A DNA stretch of 49,155 bases, from positions 4,700 through 53,854 of the forward strand of contig JBFMGS010000008.1 in NCBI GenBank assembly GCA_040752635.1, read 5' to 3'. Below are positions 10,289 through 31,525 of this stretch, piece after piece; position 1 is the stretch's first letter; every line of letters begins with the position of its first letter. The position numbers were made by a program, and so were the translations under genes. Below the pieces are notes generated by a model. That model saw only the letters and a list, made by a program, of their open reading frames with translations, did no database searches and was not told the DNA's origin. The stretch is from Bacillota bacterium (GTDB lineage: Bacteria; Bacillota; SHA-98; UBA4971).

Positions 10289-11980
10289 CTACTGCCCTTT
10301 AACTATCGCCACGCTGGCGCTGGCGCCGATCCTGGAGGCCCCCGCCTCGATCATTTTGCGGGCGGATTCCAGGTCTCTGATACCTCCGGAGGCCTTCACA
10401 CCCATGTCGGCGCCGACTACTTTTCGCATTAACCTCACATCGTCAACAGTAGCCCCGCCCGGGCCGAAGCCTGTCGAGGTCTTAACGAAGTCAGCACCGG
10501 CAATTTTTGCCAGCAAACATGCCTTCACTTTTTCCTCATCTGTCAAAAGTGCAGTCTCGAGAATTACCTTTACAAGAGCCCTGCCGCGCGCCGCTTCCAC
10601 TACAGCTTCGATGTCCCGCTTAACAAGGTCGTAGTCGCCCGACTTGAGCGCACCGACGTTGATAACCATGTCTACTTCATCAGCCCCGTTGGCTATGGCG
10701 TCCCGGGTTTCTATGGCCTTGGCGGTTGGCGTCGTGGCTCCCAGCGGGAAACCTATCACCGTGCAGACCTTGACCGGCGTGCCTTTGAGAAGGCTGGAAG
10801 CCAGACTCACATGCGTGGGGTTAACACACACTGACGCGAAGCCGTATTGTTTTGCCTCCTCACACAGCTTAACGACTTGGTCCTTCGTAGCATCTGGCTT
10901 GAGAAGCGTGTGATCTATCATGGCCCCCACGTCGCGAGCGACAGCGCCCACGCCGGGCGCAGCGCCGATCCTGGAAGCGCCCGCCTCGACTATCTTGCTT
11001 GTCCCAACGGGGTTCTCCTGGATACACTTTCCGCACCCGGAACACTCACCGAACAATCTCGAACACGCGGAATCGACAGCGTCGGCTCCAGTCCCAGCCG
11101 CGCCGGGACCAAGGGCATCTTGGCCGGCTCTTGCGTTCGTAGCAGGGCTCTGTACCTCGGCCGGTCTCTCCGACACGCCTCTCGGCGCGAACCCCATCAC
11201 GCGGAGGCCACGCTCGATCTCGTGCGCGAGGCTCTCTGCCTCAACCAGGATTATGCCGTATTCACGTAGTTTCTTGAGGTATTCGTCCGCCTGCCTGCGC
11301 AACGAGAAGGCGTGACGCCGTTGCTGGGTCGGTCCCCCGGTAGCTGGAGCGTGTTGCGGGCCGGAAGCCCCAACGAGGCCGGTAGAGTCCGGCAGCACGA
11401 AGTCGGTGGCGGCATACACTCTCTTCCCCTCCAGGACCGCCCCTAAGATCGCCTTCGTAACCGCGTCGTCCCCGGTGAGCAACGCAACTCTGGCCGCGAC
11501 GTGCAAGGGGAGCACCGGGACCACCACTATGTCAGCACATGAAACTGCAATGGCGGCATCGTCATCGCCCAAGAGCGAAACCTGGCCCAGTGCCTCAGTG
11601 ACGGCATTCTCGCCGCCTGTAGCCCTCGCTTCCTTCGAGAGCAGGCACGCAACGGACACGCCCGGACTGCGGAGTTCGCTCGCCTGTCCCAGCGCACTCA
11701 GAAGCGCTGCTCCCCCTTCTGCCACTACCACCAGCACGCGCCCCGCGCACGTTGAGGCAGGCGCCGCGGAAGCAAGCGACACGGAGGCAGACGACACTCT
11801 TGCAACCTTCTCGTCCATCTTGCCTGCGGGTTTGCTCGAAGGCGTGTCTCCAGGGCCGGCGACCCCGAGTCGAGGCGCCGTTTGACCCCCAGGTATTGCG
11901 CCGCGACTCTTCATGTCGGCTATGACTCCGTCGGTGATTCTCTCTATCAATTCGTCAATGTTCATAGGACGCCGCCGCAT
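10289..11980 (-). CDS. deoC: Fusion: encapsulation peptide + flavoprotein-like domain + Cys4 module + deoxyribose-phosphate aldolase
   Basis: The C-terminal ~220 aa are DeoC ([38 protein letters not shown]). The middle resembles BMC-associated flavoproteins (ADIVVVPVL...[12 protein letters not shown]...[10 protein letters not shown]). Start at ATG 11980 or 11965 (AGGTGG RBS) rather than 12085. Confidence 0.85.
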
Positions 11981-12020
11981 CCCGTCCCGTCCACCTGACT
12001 CGAGAACGAGGAGATGAGGC

Positions 12021-12308
12021 CTACCTCCTTTCACCTTGCCGGCTTGCGTGGATGGCATCGACGACCCCGACGATGGCGGAATCAACAGGCGCCTCGTTGT
12101 TGCCCATGGCCTGCCTTGCAGAGTTGCCCTCGCTCACTACGAGGACGATATCCCCCGGGCCGGCATCCTGAGAGTCGATTGCCAGGATCTCCTGGCCGTA
12201 ATCATTACCGTCGAGGTCCAAAGGCTGGACCAGCAGCATCTTGGACCCGACAAAACTCTTATTCTTCTGGGTCGCGACGACCGACCCAACCACCCTGCCG
12301 ATTACCAC
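12021..12308 (-). CDS. BMC-P shell vertex protein (EutN/CcmL) #1
   Basis: [13 protein letters not shown]...[15 protein letters not shown]...GNSAR...[11 protein letters not shown]. Start GTG 12308 (ORF track over-extends to 12419). Confidence 0.92.
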
Positions 12309-12363
12309 AGCCCCACCCCGATCACAAAGCGCATAAGGCGACAGTCTGTTTCCCGTGCATAGT

Positions 12364-12678
12364 CTATTTCCCGTGCACCGCAGCAGGACCCGCCCTATCG
12401 GATGGCTCCACGTGCACATGGTCCACTATTCCAACAATGGCTACATCGACGGGGGCCCCTGCCCTCGGGAGAGGAAAGGATGCTTCCCGGCCTTTCACAG
12501 CGTGTACAATCTCCCCCGCCCCCGCCCCGACGGTGTCAACCGCGATGAGCGGCTTGCCGCAAGGGGTGCCGTCGCGCTTCAGCGGCTCAACCACAAGTAG
12601 CTTCACGCCTTCGAGTTTTTCGTCTTTTCGCGTAGCGACTATTTTGCCCACTACCCTCGCGATAAACAGGGCGCTCAC
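12364..12678 (-). CDS. BMC-P (EutN/CcmL) #2
   Basis: FIARVVGKIVATRKDEKLEG...AVDTVGAGAGE...PVDVAIVGIVD. Confidence 0.92.
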   Translation of the reverse strand: MSALFIARVVGKIVATRKDEKLEGVKLLVVEPLKRDGTPCGKPLIAVDTVGAGAGEIVHAVKGREASFPLPRAGAPVDVAIVGIVDHVHVEPSDRAGPAAVHGK

Positions 12679-12724
12679 CCTCCGATGTCAAGCAAAAGCT
12701 CGCTCGCCACAGTCAAGGAGACGC

Positions 12725-13183
12725 TCACTCGCCTCTTGAGAGGAACCTTCTCTCGATCTCCATTATCTTGTTCACGCGGCGCAGGTGCCTTCCCCCGGCG
12801 AATTCCGTGGCAAGCCACACCTTCACGATCTCCCTGGCCACACCCTTGCCTACCACCCTGTCGCCCAGCGCCAGGACGTTTGCGTCGTTGTGCTCGCGGC
12901 TGTTCCTGGCCGTATATATGTCCTGGCAGGCGGCGCATCTCACCCCGGGCACCTTGTTTGCTGCCATAGCCGACCCGACCCCCGCGCCGTCCACAATGAT
13001 GCCGCGGTCGAAAAGGCCCCTCGCGACAGCTTCGGCCACAAGAAAGGCAAAGTCAGGATAGTCCACCGGGTCCCTGCTGTGCGTGCCGTAATCCACGCAC
13101 TCATAGCCGAGCTCTCCGAGGTAAGCCTTGATATCTTCCTTCAGTTCAAACCCACCATGGTCGCTGCCGATCACTACTTTCAT
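12725..13183 (-). CDS. rpiB: Ribose-5-phosphate isomerase B family protein
   Basis: GSDHGG, DYPD, AANKVPGVR, SREHNDANVLALG and GGRHLRRV motifs. Confidence 0.92.
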   Translation of the reverse strand: MKVVIGSDHGGFELKEDIKAYLGELGYECVDYGTHSRDPVDYPDFAFLVAEAVARGLFDRGIIVDGAGVGSAMAANKVPGVRCAACQDIYTARNSREHNDANVLALGDRVVGKGVAREIVKVWLATEFAGGRHLRRVNKIMEIERRFLSRGE

Positions 13184-14559
13184 CGTCTGCCCCTCCCGGC
13201 AACGATCGTGATTGCCTCACCAACCTGGGAAACGACACCGGAAATACTCGCATGAACCCTCGCCCCGATTCTACCTTCCGGGATGTCGGCAACAAGGTCG
13301 CCCTCCATCACCTCGTCACCCGGGCGAACGCACGGCACGGCCGGGGCGCCAACGTGCTGGAGCAGCGGGATGTCCACTCTATCAGGGATGAAGAGTTCTA
13401 TTCCAGGAGCATGATGCCCTACGTAGGGAGCAATTCCTGCGCGCATTGTCAGCCTCGATGAAGGTACACGCCTTGACCCCCTCATGGGGTGCGCCAGAAT
13501 ATCGCTGTTATGGTAGGGGTTCTTGACATCTTTTCCCGCCATCGACTGCTTGAGAGCCTGGTTCACTCGAACTGGTGCGAGTCCTGCAGGACAGCCGACG
13601 ATTGCACAAACGCCGCACTCTGAGCAAAGCCAGGCGCTGGTGATTACTTCGGGCGGGGCTCCCGGGCCCATGCTCATTGCACGCATGATGAGATGCGGAG
13701 ATATTCTATGGCCCAAGAGGTGCCGGGGGCATGTTTCGGTGCAGCTCATGCACTGGCAACACGCGGCTCTCGCCCGCTTCAAGATGACTTTGACTTCATC
13801 CTCGCGCATCCTGACGAGCAGGTGGTCGGCAGGCAGCACGATGATCCCGGCGGTGAGCTTCGTTATGACGCCTGATGCGTTCGGCGCCAGCTTGCCCATG
13901 GCCGGCCCGCCCATGATGATTCTGTATCGTTCCACCACAGGCCCGCCTGCAATCTCGATGGCAGCCGCAACCGAAGTGCCTATCGGAAACCGCGCGGTCA
14001 GAGGCCTTGCCACTGCCCCGGCCACTGTGACCAATCGAGAGGTCACCGGGCGCCCTTCCACGGCATTTGCGACGTTTGCCAGGGTGGCCACGTTGCTGAC
14101 GACCACTCCTGCTTCTAGCGGCAAACCCCCTTCAGGTACGTACCTCCCGGTCACCTCGTGCACAAGTACGTGCTCATCCCCTATAGGATAAACGTCATCA
14201 AGCTCGAAGACATCGATGCCGTTCTCGCGCGAGACCGTTTCCCTTATGGCCTGTAGCACCTTGTCGTGCTTTCTTTTGATGGCAACGAAGCCGTGCCGCG
14301 CCCCTGTGGCTTTCATGGCGGCTCGGAGGCCTGCAACGACTTTTGCAGGCTCGAGAAGCATTACTGCCTGGTCGGCGGTTAGCAGGGGTTCGCACTCGGC
14401 GCCGTTTGCGATAACAGTATCCACAGCCGTCGAGAGTTTGACATGCGTCGGAAACCCCGCCCCGCCAGAACCCACGACGCCCGCGTTTCGGATGGCCGCA
14501 ATTATGTCCGCTGGTGCCATCGCCGGCATCTTTACACCACCCAGGAAGCTCGCGCTCAA
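13180..14559 (-). CDS. PduS-like (RnfC/NuoF-related) flavin/Fe-S oxidoreductase
   Basis: GAGFPTHVKL, NGAECEPLL, an SLBB region, and two ferredoxin motifs (CCQCMSCTETCP, CSECGVCAIVGCP). Confidence 0.88.
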   Translation of the reverse strand: MSASFLGGVKMPAMAPADIIAAIRNAGVVGSGGAGFPTHVKLSTAVDTVIANGAECEPLLTADQAVMLLEPAKVVAGLRAAMKATGARHGFVAIKRKHDKVLQAIRETVSRENGIDVFELDDVYPIGDEHVLVHEVTGRYVPEGGLPLEAGVVVSNVATLANVANAVEGRPVTSRLVTVAGAVARPLTARFPIGTSVAAAIEIAGGPVVERYRIIMGGPAMGKLAPNASGVITKLTAGIIVLPADHLLVRMREDEVKVILKRARAACCQCMSCTETCPRHLLGHRISPHLIMRAMSMGPGAPPEVITSAWLCSECGVCAIVGCPAGLAPVRVNQALKQSMAGKDVKNPYHNSDILAHPMRGSRRVPSSRLTMRAGIAPYVGHHAPGIELFIPDRVDIPLLQHVGAPAVPCVRPGDEVMEGDLVADIPEGRIGARVHASISGVVSQVGEAITIVAGRGRR

Positions 14560-14563
14560 TGCC

Positions 14564-14857
14564 TCAACCTTTCCGGTAGACTACTCTGCCTTCCATCTCG
14601 ATGGAGTCCACGATCCCCATAATGACCGCATCTACAGGCGTGTTTTGCGTCTTGGACGTCTGGCGCGCGGAGCTTCCGCTCACCACGAGCACTATCTCCC
14701 CTTCGCCCGCGCCCACTGTATCGATGGCTACGAGGGGCTTCCCATCGGGGGACTGGTCCACTAGAGAGATCGGCTGCACGACCTGGAGCTTTGAGCCCAC
14801 CAGCTTGTCATCCTTTCTGGTGCATACCACCGTGCCCACGACCTTGCAGGCAATCAA
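14564..14857 (-). CDS. BMC-P (EutN/CcmL) #3
   Basis: IACKVVGTVVCTRKD...AIDTVGAGEGE...GSSAR...PVDAVIMGIVD; TTG start with GGAGG RBS. Confidence 0.92.
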   Translation of the reverse strand: MIACKVVGTVVCTRKDDKLVGSKLQVVQPISLVDQSPDGKPLVAIDTVGAGEGEIVLVVSGSSARQTSKTQNTPVDAVIMGIVDSIEMEGRVVYRKG

Positions 14858-15182
14858 TGGGATCCCCCTCCTCCCTGAACGATACTGACCGGTAACGCCC
14901 TCCCCTCCCTGAGGTGAGCGGCATCATCACTTGCAACGATAATCTGTTCCTAAAGGTTGAACCGGTTCTTCAGGACACGAACCCTGACACCTTTACGCAT
15001 CGACACAGGATCCTCCCCGAAGCGCGGCAGCGGCACGGCTGGAGCCATGAGTTCCGCGGCCGCGCCGACCTTTCGTCGCCGACTTCTCGCCGGCGCCCTG
15101 GCACCAGGAGCGTCAGCTTTTTCCAACACTTAGCACCCTGCTCTTTCCGAGAAGACATTCGGGGAGGTCGCCCCTCGCGGTA

Positions 15183-15485
15183 TTACCCTTTCTCCTTCTT
15201 CATTTCTGGCAGGGTGATAGGCAGCTTGCCCTCGAGGTCGAAATGCGGCCTCGGGATCACATGCACCGATACGACTTCGCCGATCTTCGCGGCCGCCGCG
15301 GCCCCGGCGTCGCACGCAGACTTGCACGCCGCCACCTCGCCTCTCACCAGGACGGTGACGTAGCCGCCGCCGATCTTCTCCCAGCCCACGAGCCTCACGT
15401 TTGCTGCCTTGACCATAGCGTCCGCAGCCTCTATCATCGCAACGAGTCCCTTGGTCTCAATCATTCCCAGCGCTTCCATGGCCAT
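15183..15485 (-). CDS. BMC-H shell hexamer (PduA/EutM-like)
   Basis: [26 protein letters not shown]...RGEVAACK...HVIPRPH. Confidence 0.95.
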
Positions 15486-15910
15486 TTGGGTTCACCCCCT
15501 TTCGCTACCGCAACTGCGTAACCTAAACGGACTAATACCGTGGCTATCACACTAACCAGGACGTCGCGGTCCGGGTCCGGCCCGAGCCTTGCGACGGCGG
15601 CGCGCGCTATTCTCGCCATAAGCTCATCCAGCGGAATCCCCGTCTGAAGGCGCTCTCGGCAGGGCAAAGCGCCCTCCGTGCGAACTCCGGAATGCACAGT
15701 GGCCCGGCCCGGTGCCGCGGTCGCCGCGCCGTGGGTCGCCACGACCGACCCGGCGTTGTCCCGACCCTGCTTGTTTATCTCCACGAGGTCTATCCCGTGT
15801 TCCGCAGCGTAATCTCTGGCAGCGGGCGTCACGATCGCACCGCGCGGCACCACAATCTCACACCCTGCCGGAAAGTTCCTCAGTTCCGCCTCGGTGATAA
15901 CCGCTCGCAC
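15461..15910 (-). CDS. BMC-associated hypothetical protein with C-terminal encapsulation-like helices
   Basis: N-terminal VITEAELR...[24 protein letters not shown], a low-complexity linker, then [16 protein letters not shown] and [15 protein letters not shown]. Start GTG 15910 with GGAGGT RBS. Confidence 0.7.
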
Positions 15911-15982
15911 CGGAATACCTCCCGCCTCCTGCATGGCAAACCGTGGAGGATCGCCTTCACCGCCGCACCCGCATGACGGTGC

Positions 15983-16531
15983 TCACAGTAACATCCCAAC
16001 AAGCTCCTTTGCGGGCGAAGGAATCACCACGCGCCCGACGAGCAGGCCTTTCGCACCGGCGTCAGCGCTTCCCGCAGCGATGGCCGCCTGCACCGCACCC
16101 ACCTCTCCGGTGAGAGTCACAAAGCACTTGCCGCCCAGCCCGATGGCAAGGCGCAGTTCGATGGCGTCAACCGCCGCAGCCTTCAGGGCGGCGTCCGCGG
16201 CCACGATCGCTGACGCTACCGTGAAGGTCTCGATGACGCCAAGCGCCTTGACCTCTTTTACGTCGGACGTAGCTGTTATCGCCGGAAACACCCCCGGGTG
16301 CACGTTGGGTAGGATAAACTCGTCCACGACAGCGTCCGCCGCTACCGCCAGGCCTGCAGCAACCGAACTCTTCACGGCGCCTACATCCCCTGATACCAGG
16401 GTCGTATACTTCCCGGGGCAGGTGGGGCGCGCAAGAAGAAGCTCAACGTCAGCAGCCTTGACCATGGCGTCGGTTGCTTCTATTCCCCTCGTTATATTAG
16501 CGAACTCCACGAGACCTATCGCTATACCCAC
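15983..16531 (-). CDS. BMC-T single-layer trimer, PduT-like
   Basis: Two BMC domains; RPTCPGKY carries the pore Cys that binds an Fe-S cluster in PduT. Confidence 0.9.
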   Translation of the reverse strand: MGIAIGLVEFANITRGIEATDAMVKAADVELLLARPTCPGKYTTLVSGDVGAVKSSVAAGLAVAADAVVDEFILPNVHPGVFPAITATSDVKEVKALGVIETFTVASAIVAADAALKAAAVDAIELRLAIGLGGKCFVTLTGEVGAVQAAIAAGSADAGAKGLLVGRVVIPSPAKELVGMLL

Positions 16532-16753
16532 GAGGACTGTCCCCCTCGCACCAGTCTAGAACCGCAAGTCCCGAACTCGTATCTGGTCTCAGAGCCGGGC
16601 ACCGTCGTCCTGGCCGTTGAACACGAGGATGATTGCCCCTTGCGCCATTTCTTACCCGCCGCACCCGGAAAGCACACCGCCAGGCCCGGCCTGCATGTAC
16701 GCAGGCTTCAAAACCCACCGTGCCCCGTGCCGCTAGCTGCTACGAGCAGTCGC

Positions 16754-17560
16754 TCATCTACGGGTCCCGGTGCTCCCGACGACCTCCACCAGATCGCCGT
16801 TTCTCAGGAGCGCCGCGTTGGCTTCATCCGTATCCACGTGCATCTCAAGACGAAAGCTCTTGTCCACCCTCACAAGGACTCGCCCGAACACGAGTCCCCG
16901 ATCCCCCGGGACCTCCACCTCGACGCGGTCCTTATCCCGCAGCCCCCATCGGCTGGCTTCCTCAGGCGTCATGTGGATGTGGCGGACCGCAATGATCGCA
17001 CCCTCTTTCAGGCTGACCAGCCCGCGGGGCCCCACGATTGCTATGGGCGCGGACCCGTCGAGGTCCCCGGAATCCCGTACAGGGGGCGAAATGCCGAGCG
17101 TGTACGCATCGGTCCGGCTCACTTCGACCTGCGTCCGGGCGCGTAGGGGCCCGAGCACCCTCACCGAGGGTATGCTCCCCTTGGGGCCTACAAGGGACAC
17201 GACCTCGTTTGCCACAAACTGCCCGGGTTGTGACAGATCGCGCAGCCTGGACAGGCCCATGCGTGCGGCCTCCGCCCCGAACAGCGCGGCGAAATCCTTC
17301 TCGCAGAGGTGCACGTGGCGATTAGAGACCCCGACAGGTATCACGAGCCTCCCCGCCTGGTCCTTGCTGGCGCCTCGTCCGTCGCCCGCGCCTCGCCCAT
17401 CTCGCCCAGCAGCCGCGCTTCCATCAGGCGACAGCGCCGCCGGGCCGGGCGGATCAGGGATCATGACGCCATGTGGATCAGGAACCACGAGGCCGTTTGC
17501 TTCCAGGTCCCTTATGCATCTAGCAATTAGCTCATCGAGCGATCCAGTGCCCATACTCAC
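16754..17560 (-). CDS. pduL: PduL-type phosphotransacylase with N-terminal encapsulation peptide
   Basis: VGVSNRHVHL, VRVLGP...QVEVSRTD, RHIHM and EMHVDTDEANAA motifs; N-terminal SLDELIARCIRDLEA. Confidence 0.93.
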   Translation of the reverse strand: MSMGTGSLDELIARCIRDLEANGLVVPDPHGVMIPDPPGPAALSPDGSAAAGRDGRGAGDGRGASKDQAGRLVIPVGVSNRHVHLCEKDFAALFGAEAARMGLSRLRDLSQPGQFVANEVVSLVGPKGSIPSVRVLGPLRARTQVEVSRTDAYTLGISPPVRDSGDLDGSAPIAIVGPRGLVSLKEGAIIAVRHIHMTPEEASRWGLRDKDRVEVEVPGDRGLVFGRVLVRVDKSFRLEMHVDTDEANAALLRNGDLVEVVGSTGTRR

Positions 17561-17563
17561 CTG

Positions 17564-17842
17564 CTACGGCTTCGGCAGAATTCTGTCAACGTCCGTATGT
17601 GGCCTGGGGATCACATGCACGCTTACAAGCTCGCCAACTCTCGCAGCAGCAGCGGCGCCTGCATCAGTCGCGGCTTTCACCGCTCCGACATCGCCTCGGA
17701 CCATGACGGTCACATAACCGCCACCTATGTACTCCTTACCGATGAGCACCACGTTCGCTGCCTTGACCATCGCATCTGCGGCCTCGATAGCTCCCACAAG
17801 GCCTTTCGTCTCGACCATTCCCAGTGCGTCCTGAACCATCAA
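17564..17842 (-). CDS. BMC-H shell hexamer (EutM/PduA-like)
   Basis: [26 protein letters not shown]...[14 protein letters not shown]...HVIPRPH. Likely start is ATG 17839. Confidence 0.95.
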
Positions 17843-17960
17843 CCCCGCCCCCTAACGTTATCATCAACACCGTCATTCCCGACTGGTCGTGTCACTGCTG
17901 CCGGACTATACCCGCGCTGCCGGAGTATACCTGCTATGCTGCGCTTTATTGAGTTCTGCG

Positions 17961-19700
17961 CTACTTCGTGTCGTCGCCCCGGCTCAGCTCCGAAAGGAAC
18001 CTGTCCACAACAGCCCGTATCTCTTCGTCTGAAACGATCCTCGTTTGACTGCCTCGCAAGCCCGCGCTGCGGTGCTGAGCGGTCCCCGAGCCGCCTCTGC
18101 CGTCCCTCACCGTGGGTTGACCGGACACAAGCTCAGCGTGCTCCTGGGACTGCACAACGCCTTGCCTGCTCTTGGCTCCGGCTGCAGGCGGTATCGTGAC
18201 GGGCCGGTCAACGGCCGCCGCCGGGCCGACGATGGACGGCACAGGCCTGGGCCCGGAAGGTTGAATCGAGGATTGACTCGCCCTCCAGCTTGCTCCGACT
18301 CGGCGACCTTCGATCCCTTCTTCGTATAGCCCGCGGACATCCTCTGACGTCAGGTCATACGCTACACGCTTCACGTTCACAAGGTGCATCGGCCCCACGT
18401 TATCGGCGGTGATGCTGCCGCCCCAGGTGCCGCACCCGAGGGTCAGAGCGGGCTCGAGTCCCGTAGTCGCACCGATAGCGCCCTGGGAAGACGGGGTGTT
18501 GACGAGGATCCGGAACACGGGCTTCTTCAAGGCAAACTCCCTGATAACAGCCTCATTCCGCGAGTGGATGACAAGGCTGTGGCCGATGCCTCCGAATTTC
18601 AGGATCTCGATGCAGCGCTCGCAGGCTGCCTGCCAGTCAGGCTCGACGTAGAATGCCAGGATTGGGCTGAGCTTCTCCTTTGAAAGCGGGTACTGCGGTC
18701 CAACCCCGGCAAGACGCGCGATGAGGACCCGCGTGCCTTCCGGCACCGTGATTCCAGCCAGCCTGGCAATGGTCGCGGCGCTTCTGCCCACTATGGACGG
18801 GTTGATGTTCCCGGCAGGCTGCACCACGACCCTGGCGAGCGCGGCCGCCTCTGCATCGGTCAGGAAATACCCTCCTTGCGCTCTGACTTCTTCGACAACC
18901 TGGTTCTCAATGACTGACTCAGTCACTATCGCCTGTTCTGACGCACAGATCGTGCCGTTGTCAAAAGTTTTGCTTGCGAAGATGTCCGACACAGCCTTCT
19001 TTATGTCAGCCGTACGCTCTATGAACGCCGGGACGTTCCCCGGTCCGACCCCATAAGCAGGCTTGCCTGCGCTGTAGGCCGCCTTCACCATGGCCGACCC
19101 GCCCGTCGCCAAAATGAGCGCGGTCTCAGGATGGTGCATGAGCTCGTCGGTGGCCTGCTTTGTGGGGTGAATAATGCACTGGATAGCTCCCTTCGGAGCC
19201 CCCGCGGCGCACGCAGCGTCGGCCATGACCTGCGCGGCCTGGCAACTGCACTTGCACGCAGCCGGGTGAGGGCTAAATACAATTGGGTTGCGGGCCTTCA
19301 TGCTGATGAGGCTCTTGTATATCACCGTCGATGTCGGATTCGTAGACGGCACGAGCGCAATGATAACCCCCATCGGCTCTGCTATCTCTGCAATCCTGCG
19401 GGACGGGTCGCGCCGTATGATGCCCACGGTCTTGAGGTCGCGGATGGCTTCGTACACCCGCTCCGAGGCGAAGAGGTTCTTCGTGATCTTGTCCTCGTAT
19501 ACGCCAAAGCCGGTTTCGTCGGCGGCCATCTTTGCCAGCGCACGGGCGTTTGCCCGCCCGGCTTCGGCCATGCTCTTCACAATGCGGTCCACCTGCTCTT
19601 GCGTGAGCGAGGCCAGCTTCGCGCGAGAATCCGCAGCGCGCCTCATTGCTTCCCGAGCTTCTTGAATCGACATCAAGTCCGCATCAACAGCCATCCGCAT
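17961..19700 (-). CDS. CoA-acylating aldehyde dehydrogenase with C-terminal encapsulation peptide
   Basis: [39 protein letters not shown] and TLGCG motifs; a long linker, then [16 protein letters not shown]. Confidence 0.93.
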
Positions 19701-30012: not shown

Positions 30013-31080
30013 CTACGGCTGTTGTGGCAGGAACAACACCTTCCCATGCACCATGTGCCGGTTCCATATCTCGTCAAACGCCTGCGGGACTTGTGAAATA
30101 GGTAATCGATGGGTTATGAACGGTTCAGCCACCAGTTTACCCTGGCCCATGAAGTGGAGGGTCGTCCTCCAATCGTCCTGGTGCGGCACCGTCACATCGC
30201 CGGAGTTCCACGAACCTATCACAGAAATCTCGCGCCGCATCACCCTGTCCACAGCAACCTCTGAAAGATCAAGACCCGCATGGGATATACCGCAGAAGAC
30301 CACCGACCCCAGTTTCGAAGCAATAAGGCAGCCCTGGCGTTGGGTCTGTGGAACTCCCGCGGTTTCGATCACGCGGTTGATCCCCACGCCGCCGGTCATC
30401 TCATCGACAACTTCGATGGGATCCGCTACCCGGGCATTGATACATGCATCGGCTCCCAGACGTCGCGCGATCTCTAGCTTCTCGTCGTAGATGTCTACTG
30501 CCACTACCATGACGGCGCCAGCAATTCTTGCCCACTGAACAGTGAAAAGCCCAATCGGACCCGTTCCTAAAACCGCGACAGTATCCCCAACGGTGACCCC
30601 CGCCTTCCTGATAGAATGAAGGGCGACAGCGGCAGGGTCAGTCGTAGCAGCAGTCTCAAAATCGAGACCCTCGGGAAGCCCGAGAACATTCTCAGCTCGG
30701 GTCTTGACATATTCCGCAAATGCCCCGTCCGTCCTGGAGCCGATATAGTCGTAGTGATCGCAAAGGTTATACTGTCCGCTCTTACAATAAACGCATGAGC
30801 CACATGGGATCAGCGGAATGGCGGTGACGCGCTCCCCGGGTCTTACAGTTTTGACGTCGGGACCTATATCTACAACCTCTCCCGCAAACTCGTGCCCGAT
30901 AGTGATAGGGTACGAATAGGCTCCGGTAGCCATAGCCCGGGACGGATCTGAACCGCATATCCCTGCCGCCGCTACCTTAATGAGCACTTCGTTCTCCCCG
31001 ACTTCCGGGACCGGGACGCGTTCGATACGAATATCACCAGGAGCATACAACCGCGCTGCCAGCATGGTCTTTGGGATCAA
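30013..31080 (-). CDS. Zn-dependent polyol(-phosphate) dehydrogenase (GatD/sorbitol DH-like)
   Basis: GICGSD, GHEFAG, structural-Zn CGSCVYC...C and GTGPIG motifs. Start TTG 31080 with AAGGAGG RBS (ORF track over-extends to 31392). Confidence 0.9.
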   Translation of the reverse strand: MIPKTMLAARLYAPGDIRIERVPVPEVGENEVLIKVAAAGICGSDPSRAMATGAYSYPITIGHEFAGEVVDIGPDVKTVRPGERVTAIPLIPCGSCVYCKSGQYNLCDHYDYIGSRTDGAFAEYVKTRAENVLGLPEGLDFETAATTDPAAVALHSIRKAGVTVGDTVAVLGTGPIGLFTVQWARIAGAVMVVAVDIYDEKLEIARRLGADACINARVADPIEVVDEMTGGVGINRVIETAGVPQTQRQGCLIASKLGSVVFCGISHAGLDLSEVAVDRVMRREISVIGSWNSGDVTVPHQDDWRTTLHFMGQGKLVAEPFITHRLPISQVPQAFDEIWNRHMVHGKVLFLPQQP

Positions 31081-31193
31081 CGTTTCGCCCTCCTTGCTCG
31101 CACGGCGTCTACACGGATGTTCATCACAGGGGCGGCGCACGAGCAATTCGCGGTCACTGTCGGGCCGCGACCAAAAGCCATCCCTTGCGTGTA

Positions 31194-31226
31194 GAACAAA
31201 TGTGCAATACCTATGGACATATGTGC
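31194..31226. promoter_or_regulatory. Tandem palindromic operator next to a TATACT -10
   Basis: GAACAAATGTGC (31194-31205) and GGACATATGTGC (31215-31226), immediately downstream on the minus strand of a TATACT hexamer. Confidence 0.6.
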
Positions 31227-31525
31227 TGAGTATACTATTCTCTGCCGTAGGGGAAAATCCTTCTTCAGTGTCACAAGAATTCTCATGGTAGATCTTGGTG
31301 GCGGACCTACCGATTCTGGGCAGATTGACAGGCGTACTGACGCGGGCCTGGTAGCAGTGGGGTCCTATCTGCGGCTGTCTTGTTCGCTGCACGGCAGCCC
31401 CTGGAAGCCTGACAGGCCAAGGTCGTTGCGGCTTCGCAGTTGCGCGGGTTTCTCATAAGTCTCTTCCGTCCCATCCAGGGCTGTGGAGGTAAGGGTCGGT
31501 GAATCCCGGGGAGAAACAAGAATCC

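Follow-up and report, generated by a model that had tools for sequence, protein, structure and literature searches.

The aldolase gene and its microcompartment locus

The window analyzed here, a stretch of 49,155 nucleotides from a Bacillota bacterium, carries on its minus strand a gene (10289..11980) for a 563-amino-acid protein that ends in a DeoC (DERA, deoxyribose-5-phosphate aldolase) domain; we refer to it as the DeoC fusion. According to the list of open reading frames and the translation, its frame runs without interruption over a longest extent of 10289..12085 to a TAG stop codon (10289-10291), with candidate ATG start codons at 11980 and 11965. Since an AGGTGG site lies 10 nt upstream of the former and since a database entry with 100% identity (P0002) likewise counts 563 amino acids, we place the coding sequence at 10289-11980; residue numbers given below are counted from the ATG at 11965 (P0001, 558 amino acids). 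A simple scan for terminators and promoters around the gene yielded nothing informative.

Co-oriented with the DeoC fusion are genes encoding an aldehyde dehydrogenase, PduL, two BMC-H proteins, a PduT-like BMC-T protein, three BMC-P proteins, PduS, and RpiB. Sugar phosphate utilization (SPU) loci are defined by the combination of DERA, RpiB, an aldehyde dehydrogenase, and shell genes, namely BMC-H, BMC-T, and a BMC-P triplet (PMC8217296, PMC11585597). Here, DERA (PF01791), RpiB (PF02502), the aldehyde dehydrogenase, and the shell genes lie in one orientation at 10289-19700, and the DeoC fusion is the signature enzyme of an SPU-type bacterial microcompartment (BMC). The presence of PduL and PduS, combined with the lack of a double-stacking BMC-T protein, points to the SPU1/4/7 group. 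The second signature gene (12725..13183, minus strand) encodes an RpiB-family protein (PF02502, 193.6 bits), which in the published SPU6 system complexes with DERA (PMC11585597). A PduS/MNdh homolog (13180..14559, minus strand; PF01512, PF13375, PF13534, and PF10531), an NADH-binding flavoprotein with two 4Fe-4S motifs, is a candidate redox partner. The PduT-like shell protein (15983..16531, minus strand) consists of two BMC domains and shows in its translation a pore cysteine within PTCPGK; the meaning of the CPGK motif in such proteins is taken from PMC11275729. Also on the minus strand, a 157-amino-acid hypothetical protein (15461..15934) carries a TPxARD module, which is absent from the DeoC fusion. 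Comparison of its translation with the C termini of standalone BMC flavoproteins identified this module as their C-terminal end, a region that gives weak matches to PduM, EutQ, and TIGR02536. No Fe-ADH was found among the shell genes in a Pfam scan of the locus.

A preliminary description of this DNA had reported a single uninterrupted frame of approximately 560 amino acids, composed of a peptide, a flavoprotein-like domain, a four-cysteine (Cys4) motif, and DeoC. Both the frame and the domain parse proved right, and a fifth part can be added: the protein comprises an amphipathic N-terminal helix, an HFCD/UbiX-fold domain, the Cys4 motif, a short copy of the DeoC C-terminal helix-strand (residues 317-345, repeating the end of the barrel), and an intact DeoC barrel. 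That the frame results from a false joining of two or three separate genes is so unlikely that we attach practically no weight to it, because the same uninterrupted architecture is found in independent assemblies (L004 and L005, with 63-65% identity, and P0003, with 79%). No stop or frame change occurs across the 1.7 kb of the gene, and the same continuous architecture is common to ~95 nonredundant proteins (from NCBI, JGI, ENA, and Logan assemblies) and to many genomes, appearing as a stop-free frame in 8 of the 22 genomes of the same class and in seven Hodarchaeales genomes. By the same token, to present the fusion as the strongest candidate for a new element was an overstatement: this is the common architecture of the SPU signature aldolase, and a "Flav+DERA" fusion had already been named in a 2025 preprint (PMC12747264).

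Parts of the fusion protein

The N-terminal helix (residues 3-20; 11906..11959, minus strand) is predicted by AF2 with a pLDDT of about 79-86. Its hydrophobic moment is 0.52, versus 0.25 for shuffled sequences, 2% of which reach 0.52, and the pattern xxDxLxxxITxEVxxxL is kept across the family. It is followed by a disordered linker (residues 23-70; 11756..11899, minus strand; pLDDT below 50) that is hypervariable in length and sequence in the alignment. A terminal amphipathic helix joined to a poorly conserved flexible linker is what characterizes encapsulation peptides, and we regard this helix as a putative one; evidence from coexpression for packaging into a shell by such a helix exists only for the archaeal Flav+DERA (PMC12747264).

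The next part (residues 72-262; 11180..11752, minus strand) is modeled with a pLDDT above 90, except for a disordered insertion (residues 196-211; 11333-11380, minus strand). Because DeoC would dominate the matches of the full-length protein, the N-terminal part was modeled and submitted to a fold search alone. All 50 of the 50 best Foldseek PDB matches were HFCD, UbiX, PPC-decarboxylase, or DmrB flavoproteins (E = 1e-5 to 1e-3), with target-normalized TM-scores of 0.54-0.75. The flavoprotein-like fold proposed earlier is thereby borne out. At the level of sequence, PF02441 did not match the DeoC fusion at E up to 1, no significant Pfam match was obtained for the domain (the gathering threshold not being reached), and just 4 of 30 fused relatives reached PF02441 at E up to 0.01. 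Standalone relatives of 208-284 amino acids, drawn from a library of 1.8 billion proteins, match the domain at E values down to 4e-9, and these score 30-48 bits on PF02441, passing the Pfam threshold. On these sequence comparisons, the domain shares ancestry with the PF02441 flavoproteins associated with microcompartments; the DeoC fusion is not a member of TIGR02536 (E = 0.063; 12.9 bits versus a cutoff of 152.6).

What we take to be the flavin-site motifs of the HFCD/UbiX fold are two loops, one that follows strand 1 and reads G-[ST]-[GS], the other of the P-A-[ST]-A-N-T type. Mapped onto the DeoC fusion through an alignment with 1qzu, the first motif reads AEGG, versus TGG in solved homologs, and the second departs from the PxL(S/T)xNTAAK of those homologs. 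A82 and E83 stand where the family has T (56/95) and G (74/95), P153 stands where S or T is found in 76 of 95, and H155 stands where 35 of 95 have N. The third position of the first motif, a G, is kept in 58 of the 95 fused proteins. Standalone flavo-like versions from SPU loci have degenerate motifs as well, and a good HFCD signature (LTGG, LSLNTAAK) is kept in many family members and in the Asgard proteins. Flavin binding may thus be real for the family, with the clade of the DeoC fusion as an exception; for the DeoC fusion itself, it is doubtful, since both FMN-site motifs are degenerate.

Beyond a second disordered linker (residues 263-298; 11072..11179, minus strand; pLDDT below 50 for residues 265-300; variable in the alignment) lies the ferredoxin-like Cys4 motif, C301-x6-C308-x2-C311-G-x-C314-x3-N318-P319 (11009..11065, minus strand), which was delineated by conservation, profile searches, and spacing tallies. 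The C-x6-C-x2-C-x2-C pattern that had been noted at 11065-11024 is exact and corresponds to C301, C308, C311, and C314. The 95 homologs show no exception at C301, C308, G312, or C314 and keep C311 in at least 90% of cases, between flanking linkers that are hypervariable. The motif aligns with the ferredoxin signature CxxCGxCxxxCP and probably binds one Fe-S cluster. Proline occupies the canonical ferredoxin position in 53 of 94 relatives, and the fourth canonical cysteine is never present, with asparagine in its place in 43 of 94; the upstream cysteine is invariant, at a variable distance of 4-16 (mostly 6-7) residues. The C-x6-C-x2-C spacing recalls the cluster loop of endonuclease III and MutY. 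When searched against the PDB, a profile of the motif retrieved mostly ferredoxin-type 4Fe-4S chains, at marginal E values (0.003-0.6); PF00037 was reached by 2 of 30 relatives and not by the DeoC fusion itself, and the pLDDT of the cysteine segment is just 57-81.

All architectures with the Cys motif have the pre-barrel segment (residues 317-345; 10931..11017, minus strand) immediately behind it, and this segment is present in the Cys-less Asgard forms, too. An hhalign comparison matched it to DeoC columns 530-558 (probability, 89%; E = 2e-6), G329, A330, R332, and G338 are invariant, and in a PDB profile search, the second half of the profile spanning Cys4 and this segment matched the C termini of solved DeoC structures. 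The TIM barrel itself (residues 348-556; 10298..10924, minus strand) is, as previously stated, intact, scoring 299.6 bits on TIGR00126 (cutoff, 117.3) and 66.5 bits on PF01791 (cutoff, 23.8). The catalytic residues D432 (in EVDMVIN), K495 (the Schiff-base lysine, in DFVKTSTGF), and K524 (in GVKASGG) are kept and are invariant in the 95 homologs. A C-terminal tyrosine tail, which reportedly contributes to catalysis in Escherichia coli DERA, is found in 74 of 95 relatives and is absent from the clade of the DeoC fusion. On the basis of the motifs in PMC11585597, D432, K495, and K524 were equated with E. coli D102, K167, and K201. Activity on deoxyribose-5-phosphate has been measured just for a Chloroflexi SPU6 relative, which remains a soluble, active dimer when its 70-residue extension is removed (PMC11585597). 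The DeoC fusion is predicted to be a catalytically ordinary deoxyribose-5-phosphate aldolase.

Module combinations and the role of the extension

Relatives with Cys4 and no flavo domain exist, Bacillota short forms among them, and the Asgard relatives have the flavo domain without the cysteines. Other relatives have the helix only, their SPU loci (L029 and L063) encoding a flavo-like protein in a gene of its own, and the Chloroflexi SPU6 relatives show a different four-cysteine spacing, C-x3-C-x4-C-x3-C. Within one family, one genus (g3) has the long form and another (g2) is without the HFCD-like domain. Since each occurs without the other, the flavo-like domain and Cys4 are separable and do not form one obligatory unit. 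The Asgard fusion was found by order-level sampling of Hodarchaeales and not in the Hodarchaeum genome behind L099, which has plain DeoC genes only. The functional hint that the preliminary description saw for the orphan BMC flavoprotein family is real but modest: through the fusion and through the separate genes in SPU loci, this family is physically linked to aldolase cargo.

The ferredoxin-like spacing is accompanied by PduS in 10 of 10 shell-gene loci (about 7-8 of them independent), versus 0 of 9 loci for the SPU6 spacing, a pattern that would also fit a redox partnership but is confounded by phylogeny, as all nine SPU6 loci are of the Anaerolineae type. That the flavo-like domain goes with PduS, an idea first raised by the literature on SPU6 (no PduS and a short extension), was rejected because Bacillota short forms (L001 and L084-L086) have PduS and no flavo domain. 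Obligatory coupling of Cys4 to PduS was weakened as a candidate both by this confounding and by the Cys-less Asgard Flav+DERA, at a distance of about 2.2 kb from which all four genomes checked encode a PduS homolog with 47-49% identity.

The reading that we favor, with a probability of roughly 0.55, is that the DeoC fusion is an ordinary aldolase whose ~345-residue N-terminal extension is an accessory, modular organizing region (encapsulation, oligomerization, and a structural or redox-sensing cluster) outside the aldol chemistry. That the extension is accessory follows from the SPU6 relative, in which its deletion left an active aldolase. The identity of the protein, its architecture, and the conservation and separability of its modules are observed, and the roles that we infer for the modules are as follows. 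The amphipathic helix would, judging from sequence and precedent, be the encapsulation peptide and thus deliver the enzyme to the interior of the shell. The HFCD-fold domain, with its flavin-site signature largely lost in this clade, might contribute mainly the obligatory trimer-based self-association of its fold family; combined with a dimeric aldolase, such trimers could give rise to a multivalent particle or network that condenses the cargo and displays many encapsulation peptides, in analogy to the tetrahedral dodecamer of CoaBC. A defined CoaBC-like cage is not expected, however, because two long disordered linkers are found in place of the tight CoaBC junction. Cys4 would bind one Fe-S cluster, most likely [4Fe-4S], via the CxxCGxC triad and the upstream cysteine, and this cluster could stabilize the pre-barrel junction or report the redox or oxygen state, rather than being an obligatory wire. 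Under the published pathway model, the aldehyde dehydrogenase and PduL would process acetaldehyde, and PduS-PduT would reoxidize NADH. The earlier proposal that the fusion ties aldol cleavage to a flavin/metal redox module does not hold as stated: given the active dimer that is left without the SPU6 extension (PMC11585597), aldol cleavage is not mechanistically tied to the extension, and the flavin/metal redox module, with its degenerate FMN motifs, is no more than putative.

Electron transfer would give the same modules a different meaning. FMN on the flavoprotein-fold domain and [4Fe-4S] on Cys4, tethered to the most abundant cargo, could relay electrons in the lumen, taking them from PduS/MNdh or passing them to the pore cluster of PduT, and so help regenerate NAD+ for the aldehyde dehydrogenase. 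The locus, with PduS, a CPGK-bearing PduT-like protein, and no Fe-ADH among the shell genes, is consistent with such a relay, as is the 10-of-10 versus 0-of-9 distribution of PduS, were it not for its phylogenetic confounding. Some proteins with the PF02441 fold are dedicated electron carriers (the fold matches include DmrB), standalone BMC relatives weakly match archaeoflavoprotein AfpA and DmrX-type families, and the MNdh paper names the PF02441 proteins of such operons as possible electron acceptors (PMC11275729). Nevertheless, the MNdh-PduT pair needs no further protein to pass electrons in vitro from NADH to an acceptor outside (PMC11275729), Bacillota short forms combine Cys4 and PduS without a flavo domain, Asgard Flav+DERA is Cys-less with PduS close by, and the DeoC fusion has degenerate FMN-site motifs; we consider the relay rather unlikely.

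Those same degenerate motifs, together with Asgard relatives that manage without cysteines, would suit a protein devoid of redox chemistry, in which Cys4 is a structural zinc (or disulfide) knuckle and the flavoprotein-fold domain serves as a spacer or scaffold without a cofactor. A stretch of 14 residues with four cysteines is able to bind zinc, the segment is small and modeled with modest confidence, and the Chloroflexi spacing is unlike that of ferredoxins and partly decayed in L161 and L128. We nonetheless find a zinc knuckle quite unlikely here, for CxxCGxC with an invariant glycine and the canonical proline is a 4Fe-4S signature rather than the CxxC...CxxC of zinc ribbons, the profile matches are ferredoxin-type proteins, and the host, seemingly a spore-former of the anaerobic type, encodes further Fe-S proteins in this locus. 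Even the pre-barrel repeat could be given a regulatory part, as an autoregulatory or strand-swapping element whose pseudo-C-terminus is placed by the cluster segment at the barrel of the same or a neighboring subunit, the state of the cluster gating activity or pairing. Its statistical support, the invariant GA-R-G residues, its position next to the Cys motif in all Cys4 architectures, its persistence in the Cys-less Asgard forms, and the tyrosine tail missing from this clade speak for such an element, which we still hold to be improbable: AF2 does not pack the segment with confidence (pLDDT, 57-81), the SPU6 enzyme is active without its entire extension (PMC11585597), and a tandem DeoC-DeoC ancestor such as P0022 may simply have left the repeat behind.

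SPU compartments are among the most widespread bacterial BMCs and are now known from archaea too, with a biochemistry that is barely explored; NAD+ recycling and cargo assembly are the questions on which the modules of the DeoC fusion bear. The SPU signature aldolase usually has an invariant ferredoxin-like Cys4 and often an HFCD-fold domain, and the published removal of the extension for the sake of a soluble enzyme also took away a likely metal site. It is conceivable, albeit unlikely, that most bacterial SPU signature aldolases contain a redox-active [4Fe-4S] cluster, and long forms a flavin as well, making them a tethered ferredoxin/flavoprotein that wires PduS (MNdh) to the PduT pore across the lumen or gates cargo assembly and activity by redox or oxygen state; if true, this would be a class I aldolase that bears Fe-S and would add a new element to the way in which microcompartments handle electrons. 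The independent occurrence of the modules (both, neither, Cys4 alone, or flavo alone) provides natural variants for testing each of them.

Comparison with known systems

The fold of the flavoprotein-like domain is the Rossmann-like one of the HFCD family (PPC decarboxylase CoaC, EpiD, and MrsD) and of UbiX and DmrB; in contrast to those proteins, the DeoC fusion shows no evidence of flavin, decarboxylase catalytic residues, or oligomerization. HFCD proteins of solved structure form trimers or dodecamers. In CoaBC, in which an N-terminal HFCD-fold domain is likewise fused to a C-terminal dimerizing enzyme, the edges are occupied by dimers and the vertices by HFCD trimers (PMC7794376); the CoaBC junction is tight, whereas that of the DeoC fusion is a long disordered linker. 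Also related are the standalone PF02441 BMC flavoproteins (related to TIGR02536, "eut_hyp"), with a homologous alpha/beta domain and an N-terminal amphipathic helix of their own. These keep FTGG and PVLTxNTAAKxAxGIADT and end in a TPLARD module, whereas in the DeoC fusion the domain, with degenerate signatures, forms part of an aldolase, and TPxARD resides in a separate gene.

With the PF00037 ferredoxin motif (CxxCxxCxxxCP), the Cys4 motif shares the register C308-x2-C311-G-x-C314-x3-x-P319, and its marginal profile matches include PsaC, FwdG, RnfB, and small ferredoxins. The family differs in being without the fourth cysteine, for which the invariant upstream cysteine could complete the ligand set, and the DeoC fusion has a half-motif only and no ferredoxin domain. 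The literature searched yielded no account of either the Cys4 motif or the internal repeat; the fusion of flavoprotein and DERA has already been noted (PMC12747264).

The SPU microcompartment DERA (Dwyer, Sutter, and Kerfeld 2024, PMC11585597; SPU loci, Axen 2014 and Sutter 2021) shares with the DeoC fusion the locus set of DERA, RpiB, aldehyde dehydrogenase, PduL, PduS, BMC-H/T, and three BMC-P proteins, identical catalytic residues, and an extension at the N terminus that opens with an amphipathic helix. In SPU6 DERA, this extension amounts to ~70 residues (a helix and two strands), versus ~345 residues including an HFCD-fold domain here, and the SPU6-type genes examined have a cysteine spacing unlike that of the DeoC fusion; a Cys motif, a flavoprotein-fold domain, and an internal repeat are not mentioned in PMC11585597. 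Another counterpart is the Hodarchaeales Flav+DERA (bioRxiv 2025, PMC12747264), which has the same order of helix, HFCD-fold domain, GAxRI segment, and DeoC; the proteins from seven Hodarchaeales genomes match the profile of the bacterial family end to end, at about 590 bits. They differ from the DeoC fusion in that the position of the motif is devoid of cysteines and the flavin-site signature is far better kept. Finally, while the fusion was called uncommon in bacterial BMCs (PMC12747264), we find it to be frequent among bacterial SPU aldolases.

The aldolase gene and its locus

The aldolase is encoded on the minus strand by an ORF without interruption, which at its longest extent spans 10289..12085 and contains ATG codons at positions 11980 and 11965. 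Both an AGGTGG site, 10 nt upstream of the 11980 ATG, and a 100% identical database entry of 563 aa (P0002) back the coordinates 10289-11980 proposed in the preliminary description; residue numbers used here follow the 558-aa product of the 11965 ATG. The C-terminal 210 residues are unambiguously a deoxyribose-phosphate aldolase (DeoC): TIGR00126 matches residues 348-555 with 299.6 bits (cut-off, 117.3), and the catalytic Asp/Lys/Lys residues (D432, K495 and K524) are invariant among homologs. This is the sole detectable DeoC gene of its genome, which is 87% complete. Residues 1-345, the extension, had no significant match among Pfam and NCBIfam models. At the other end of the protein (window 10289-10300), the aldolase and its close relatives terminate in ...VAIVKGQ, without the C-terminal ...GKGY tail of 74/95 family members; in E. 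coli DERA, catalysis is aided by the Tyr at the end of the chain.

The gene is the last of a co-oriented block that also encodes an aldehyde dehydrogenase (17961-19700, minus strand), PduL, a PduT-like tandem BMC protein with a CPGK pore motif (15983-16531, minus strand), a 157-aa hypothetical protein (15461-15934, minus strand), two copies of BMC-H (one between the aldehyde dehydrogenase and PduL, the second placed after the hypothetical protein), PduS, RpiB and three copies of BMC-P (one before PduS and two after RpiB). Upstream of the block lie three SorC-type regulators, a sugar ABC transporter, an FGGY kinase and a Zn-dehydrogenase. Since DERA, RpiB, aldehyde dehydrogenase and a BMC-P triplet define the sugar phosphate utilisation (SPU) microcompartment (PMC4207490, PMC8217296, PMC11585597), the window aldolase is the SPU signature aldolase. 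The PTCPGK sequence of the tandem-BMC shell protein is the pore-cysteine motif of PduT-type, 4Fe-4S-binding proteins, so that the locus holds a complete PduS-PduT (MNdh/BMC-T-SE) pair. Two further genes deserve mention. In the 579-aa aldehyde dehydrogenase ORF, the Pfam Aldedh match is limited to residues 13-274 (profile positions 29-291 of 461), and the C-terminal half may be either very divergent or carrying something else. Similarly, the Zn-dependent dehydrogenase (30013-31392, minus strand; longest ORF, 459 aa, with a GTG start) matches ADH_N from residue 132 onward only, so that either the start was called too far upstream or the protein is extended at its N-terminus.

Parts of the extension

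An AlphaFold2 monomer model, built from 95 homologs, divides the protein into a helix (residues 3-20; pLDDT, about 79-86), a disordered linker (residues 23-70; below 50), an alpha/beta domain (residues 77-256; above 90) with a floppy insertion at 196-211, a second disordered linker (residues 265-300; below 50), a Cys-motif segment (residues 301-345; 57-81) and the DeoC barrel (residues 348-558; high). The domain parse originally proposed proved accurate. The helix is amphipathic (hydrophobic moment, 0.52 versus 0.25 in shuffles) and matches the family pattern xxDxLxxxITxEVxxxL, properties that would be expected of an encapsulation peptide.

When the N-terminal region was modelled separately, all 50 of the 50 best matches in a PDB fold search were HFCD/UbiX/PPC-decarboxylase/EpiD/DmrB flavoproteins. 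Residues 1-345, used as the query of an exhaustive phmmer search, retrieved aldolases carrying the fusion as well as standalone proteins of 208-284 aa, the latter being PF02441 members (30-48 bits; cut-off, 22.7) with an N-terminal amphipathic helix of their own and a C-terminal TPLARD module weakly resembling PduM, EutQ and TIGR02536. On both grounds, the earlier term "flavoprotein-like domain" is right as a statement of homology. The flavin site itself is poorly kept. When a profile of this domain and the standalone proteins is aligned to human PPC decarboxylase, VGVTGS stands against FTGG and APLDANTLGKVASGICDN against PVLTxNTAAKxAxGIADT, two loops which, following the HFCD literature, we take to line the FMN site. 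Across 95 fused domains, conservation at these positions is only partial (T 56, G 74 and G 58, S/T 76, and N 35), and the clade of the window protein carries minority residues, including AEGG.

The 157-aa hypothetical protein (15461-15934) starts with the module that closes the standalone flavoproteins (LVTPLARDVA..GV), a TPxARD-type module with a weak resemblance to the C-terminus of PduM and the N-terminus of EutQ. In this locus, the standalone flavoprotein thus appears to be divided, one half residing in the aldolase and the other in this gene; L004 and L005, the closest loci, have homologs of the latter. Standalone proteins of ~255 aa also occur in SPU loci (L029, 4753-5517; L063, 4754-5539; L002, 4123-4902). 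These consist of a helix, a degenerate HFCD-like domain and a TPLA(K/R)(D/E) module, with neither Pfam annotation nor Cys motif, and L002 carries fused and standalone versions together.

Translation places the Cys4 motif, C301-x6-C308-x2-C311-x2-C314, exactly where it had first been noted (nt 11065-11024). The linkers on either side cannot be aligned across the 95 sequences compared; within the motif, C301, C308, G312 and C314 show no exception, and C311 is kept in at least 90%. The register follows the ferredoxin signature CxxCGxCxxxCP but departs from it in two respects: no sequence has the fourth ferredoxin cysteine (Asn in 43/94, with the Pro retained in 53/94), and an invariant upstream cysteine is found instead, at a distance of 4-16, mostly 6-7, residues. 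Searched against the PDB, the Cys-segment profile hit mainly 4Fe-4S ferredoxin-type chains (FwdG, PsaC, RnfB and PFOR-delta among them; best E = 0.003, a 4Fe-4S binding protein), with E-values that are marginal, as would be anticipated for about 20 residues; PF00037 was reached by 2 of 30 relatives. We read the motif as a putative site for one cluster, with the C308/C311/C314 triad and C301 as ligands. The C-x6-C-x2-C spacing recalls the cluster loop of endonuclease III/MutY.

Residues 317-345 are a second copy of the helix-strand that ends the barrel (hhalign probability, 89%; E = 2e-6), and the second half of the Cys-segment profile matches the C-termini of solved DeoC structures. In one relative, the 498-aa database protein P0022, a tandem pair of DeoC domains follows the encapsulation helix. 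A relic of tandem duplication, for which P0022 is a possible model, would thus be a simple origin of the repeat.

Distribution and relation to PduS

Among the best 120 clusters, the full-length search returned mostly aldolases of 460-590 aa with 86-100% query coverage. About 160 genomic loci, a sample rather than a full count, were sorted by script into five architectures: (a) helix, HFCD-like domain, ferredoxin-like Cys4, repeat and DeoC (Bacillota, Endomicrobia, Riflebacteria and others); (b) architecture (a) minus the HFCD-like domain (about 308 aa; e.g., P0040 and L084); (c) the Chloroflexi SPU6 type with C-x3-C-x4-C-x3-C, a motif that L161 and L128 have partly lost; (d) helix and linker only (L029, from Paenibacillus alba, and L063), where the locus also encodes a flavo-like protein of ~255 aa as a gene of its own, which in L029 matches the fused-domain HMM with E = 1.7e-23; and (e) the Asgard Hodarchaeales Flav+DERA, which has a good HFCD signature (LLCGG, VPxLSLNTAAK) and, in L166-L171 (genomes G004-G011), no cysteines at the Cys4 position. 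In Hodarchaeales, the family profile is matched over its full length, with about 590 bits, in 7 of 24 genomes. Within the window's own class, the long form occurs in 8 of 22 species genomes; in a sister genus, the match begins only at about position 244-260, so the HFCD-like domain is missing there. Together, the five architectures and this within-class variation indicate that modules were gained and lost independently; the extension is conserved but modular.

In SPU6-type, Anaerolineae-type aldolases (L092, L097, L089, L020 and L095), the C-x3-C-x4-C-x3-C lies just upstream of DeoC (e.g., GCKFSCAEGICVQTC), a spacing unlike that of ferredoxins. In one Hodarchaeales genome, a further DeoC match (G010:C1:1011656-1012411; profile positions 230-480) forms part of an open frame of 1261 aa, suggesting another, much larger DeoC fusion.

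Among loci with shell genes in their 10-kb flanks, ferredoxin-like spacing was accompanied by PduS in 10/10 (about 7-8 independent) and SPU6 spacing in 0/9, all nine representing a single Anaerolineae-type clade. This bacterial pattern agrees with the reported presence of PduS in all SPU subtypes but SPU6 (PMC11585597). However, in 4/4 Asgard genomes checked, the Cys-less Flav+DERA gene lies ~2.2 kb from a same-strand PduS homolog that shares 47-49% identity with the window PduS, showing that Cys4 is not needed everywhere PduS is used.

Possible roles of the extension and comparison with known systems

We favor, with a probability of roughly 55%, a reading in which the helix serves shell targeting, the HFCD-fold domain self-association and the Cys4 motif a single structural or redox-sensing Fe-S cluster. 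The helix would direct the aldolase to the shell. Since the HFCD-fold family is always trimer-based and the aldolase dimeric, the HFCD-fold domain might act mainly as a hub that, once fused, generates a multivalent particle or network. A precedent is CoaBC, in which HFCD trimers occupy the vertices and dimers the edges (PMC7794376). What the locus encodes, and the electron carriers known within the HFCD/PF02441 fold, favor a flavin/Fe-S electron relay with PduS-PduT, but the degenerate flavin site of the window protein, the Cys-less Asgard variants and the short forms make this doubtful.

That same degeneracy would suit a cofactor-free HFCD-like scaffold beside a zinc or purely structural Cys4 knuckle, which we nevertheless consider unlikely given the ferredoxin register. 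The pre-barrel repeat, resembling part of the barrel itself, could be an autoregulatory or strand-swap element, an improbable alternative to a duplication relic. An assembly artefact joining separate genes has next to no probability, with the frame uninterrupted and the same architecture found in other assemblies. The reading of helix, hub and single cluster also sits well with published work on SPU6 DERA, the extension of which measures only ~70 residues (a helix and two low-confidence strands): deleting it left a soluble, active, dimeric enzyme that kept RpiB binding, so the extension is not needed for catalysis (Dwyer et al. 2024, PMC11585597).

The main text of that study makes no mention of cysteines or a flavoprotein domain. 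Work on MNdh, the PduS homolog, has PduS and PduT exporting electrons from NADH and names PF02441 proteins in such operons as possible acceptors, without specific co-occurrence (PMC11275729). A November 2025 preprint describes the Hodarchaeales 'Flav+DERA' fusion with its encapsulation peptide, calling it uncommon in bacterial compartments and assigning no function (PMC12747264). The window protein is a typical member of a large, recognised enzyme family whose flavoprotein fusion was noticed recently, and its billing as the strongest candidate for a new element is overstated. Neither the Cys4 motif nor the internal repeat was found described in the microcompartment literature searched. Set against these known systems, the features undescribed so far are the near-universal ferredoxin-like Cys4, the internal repeat, the flavin-site degeneracy and the mosaic distribution of modules.
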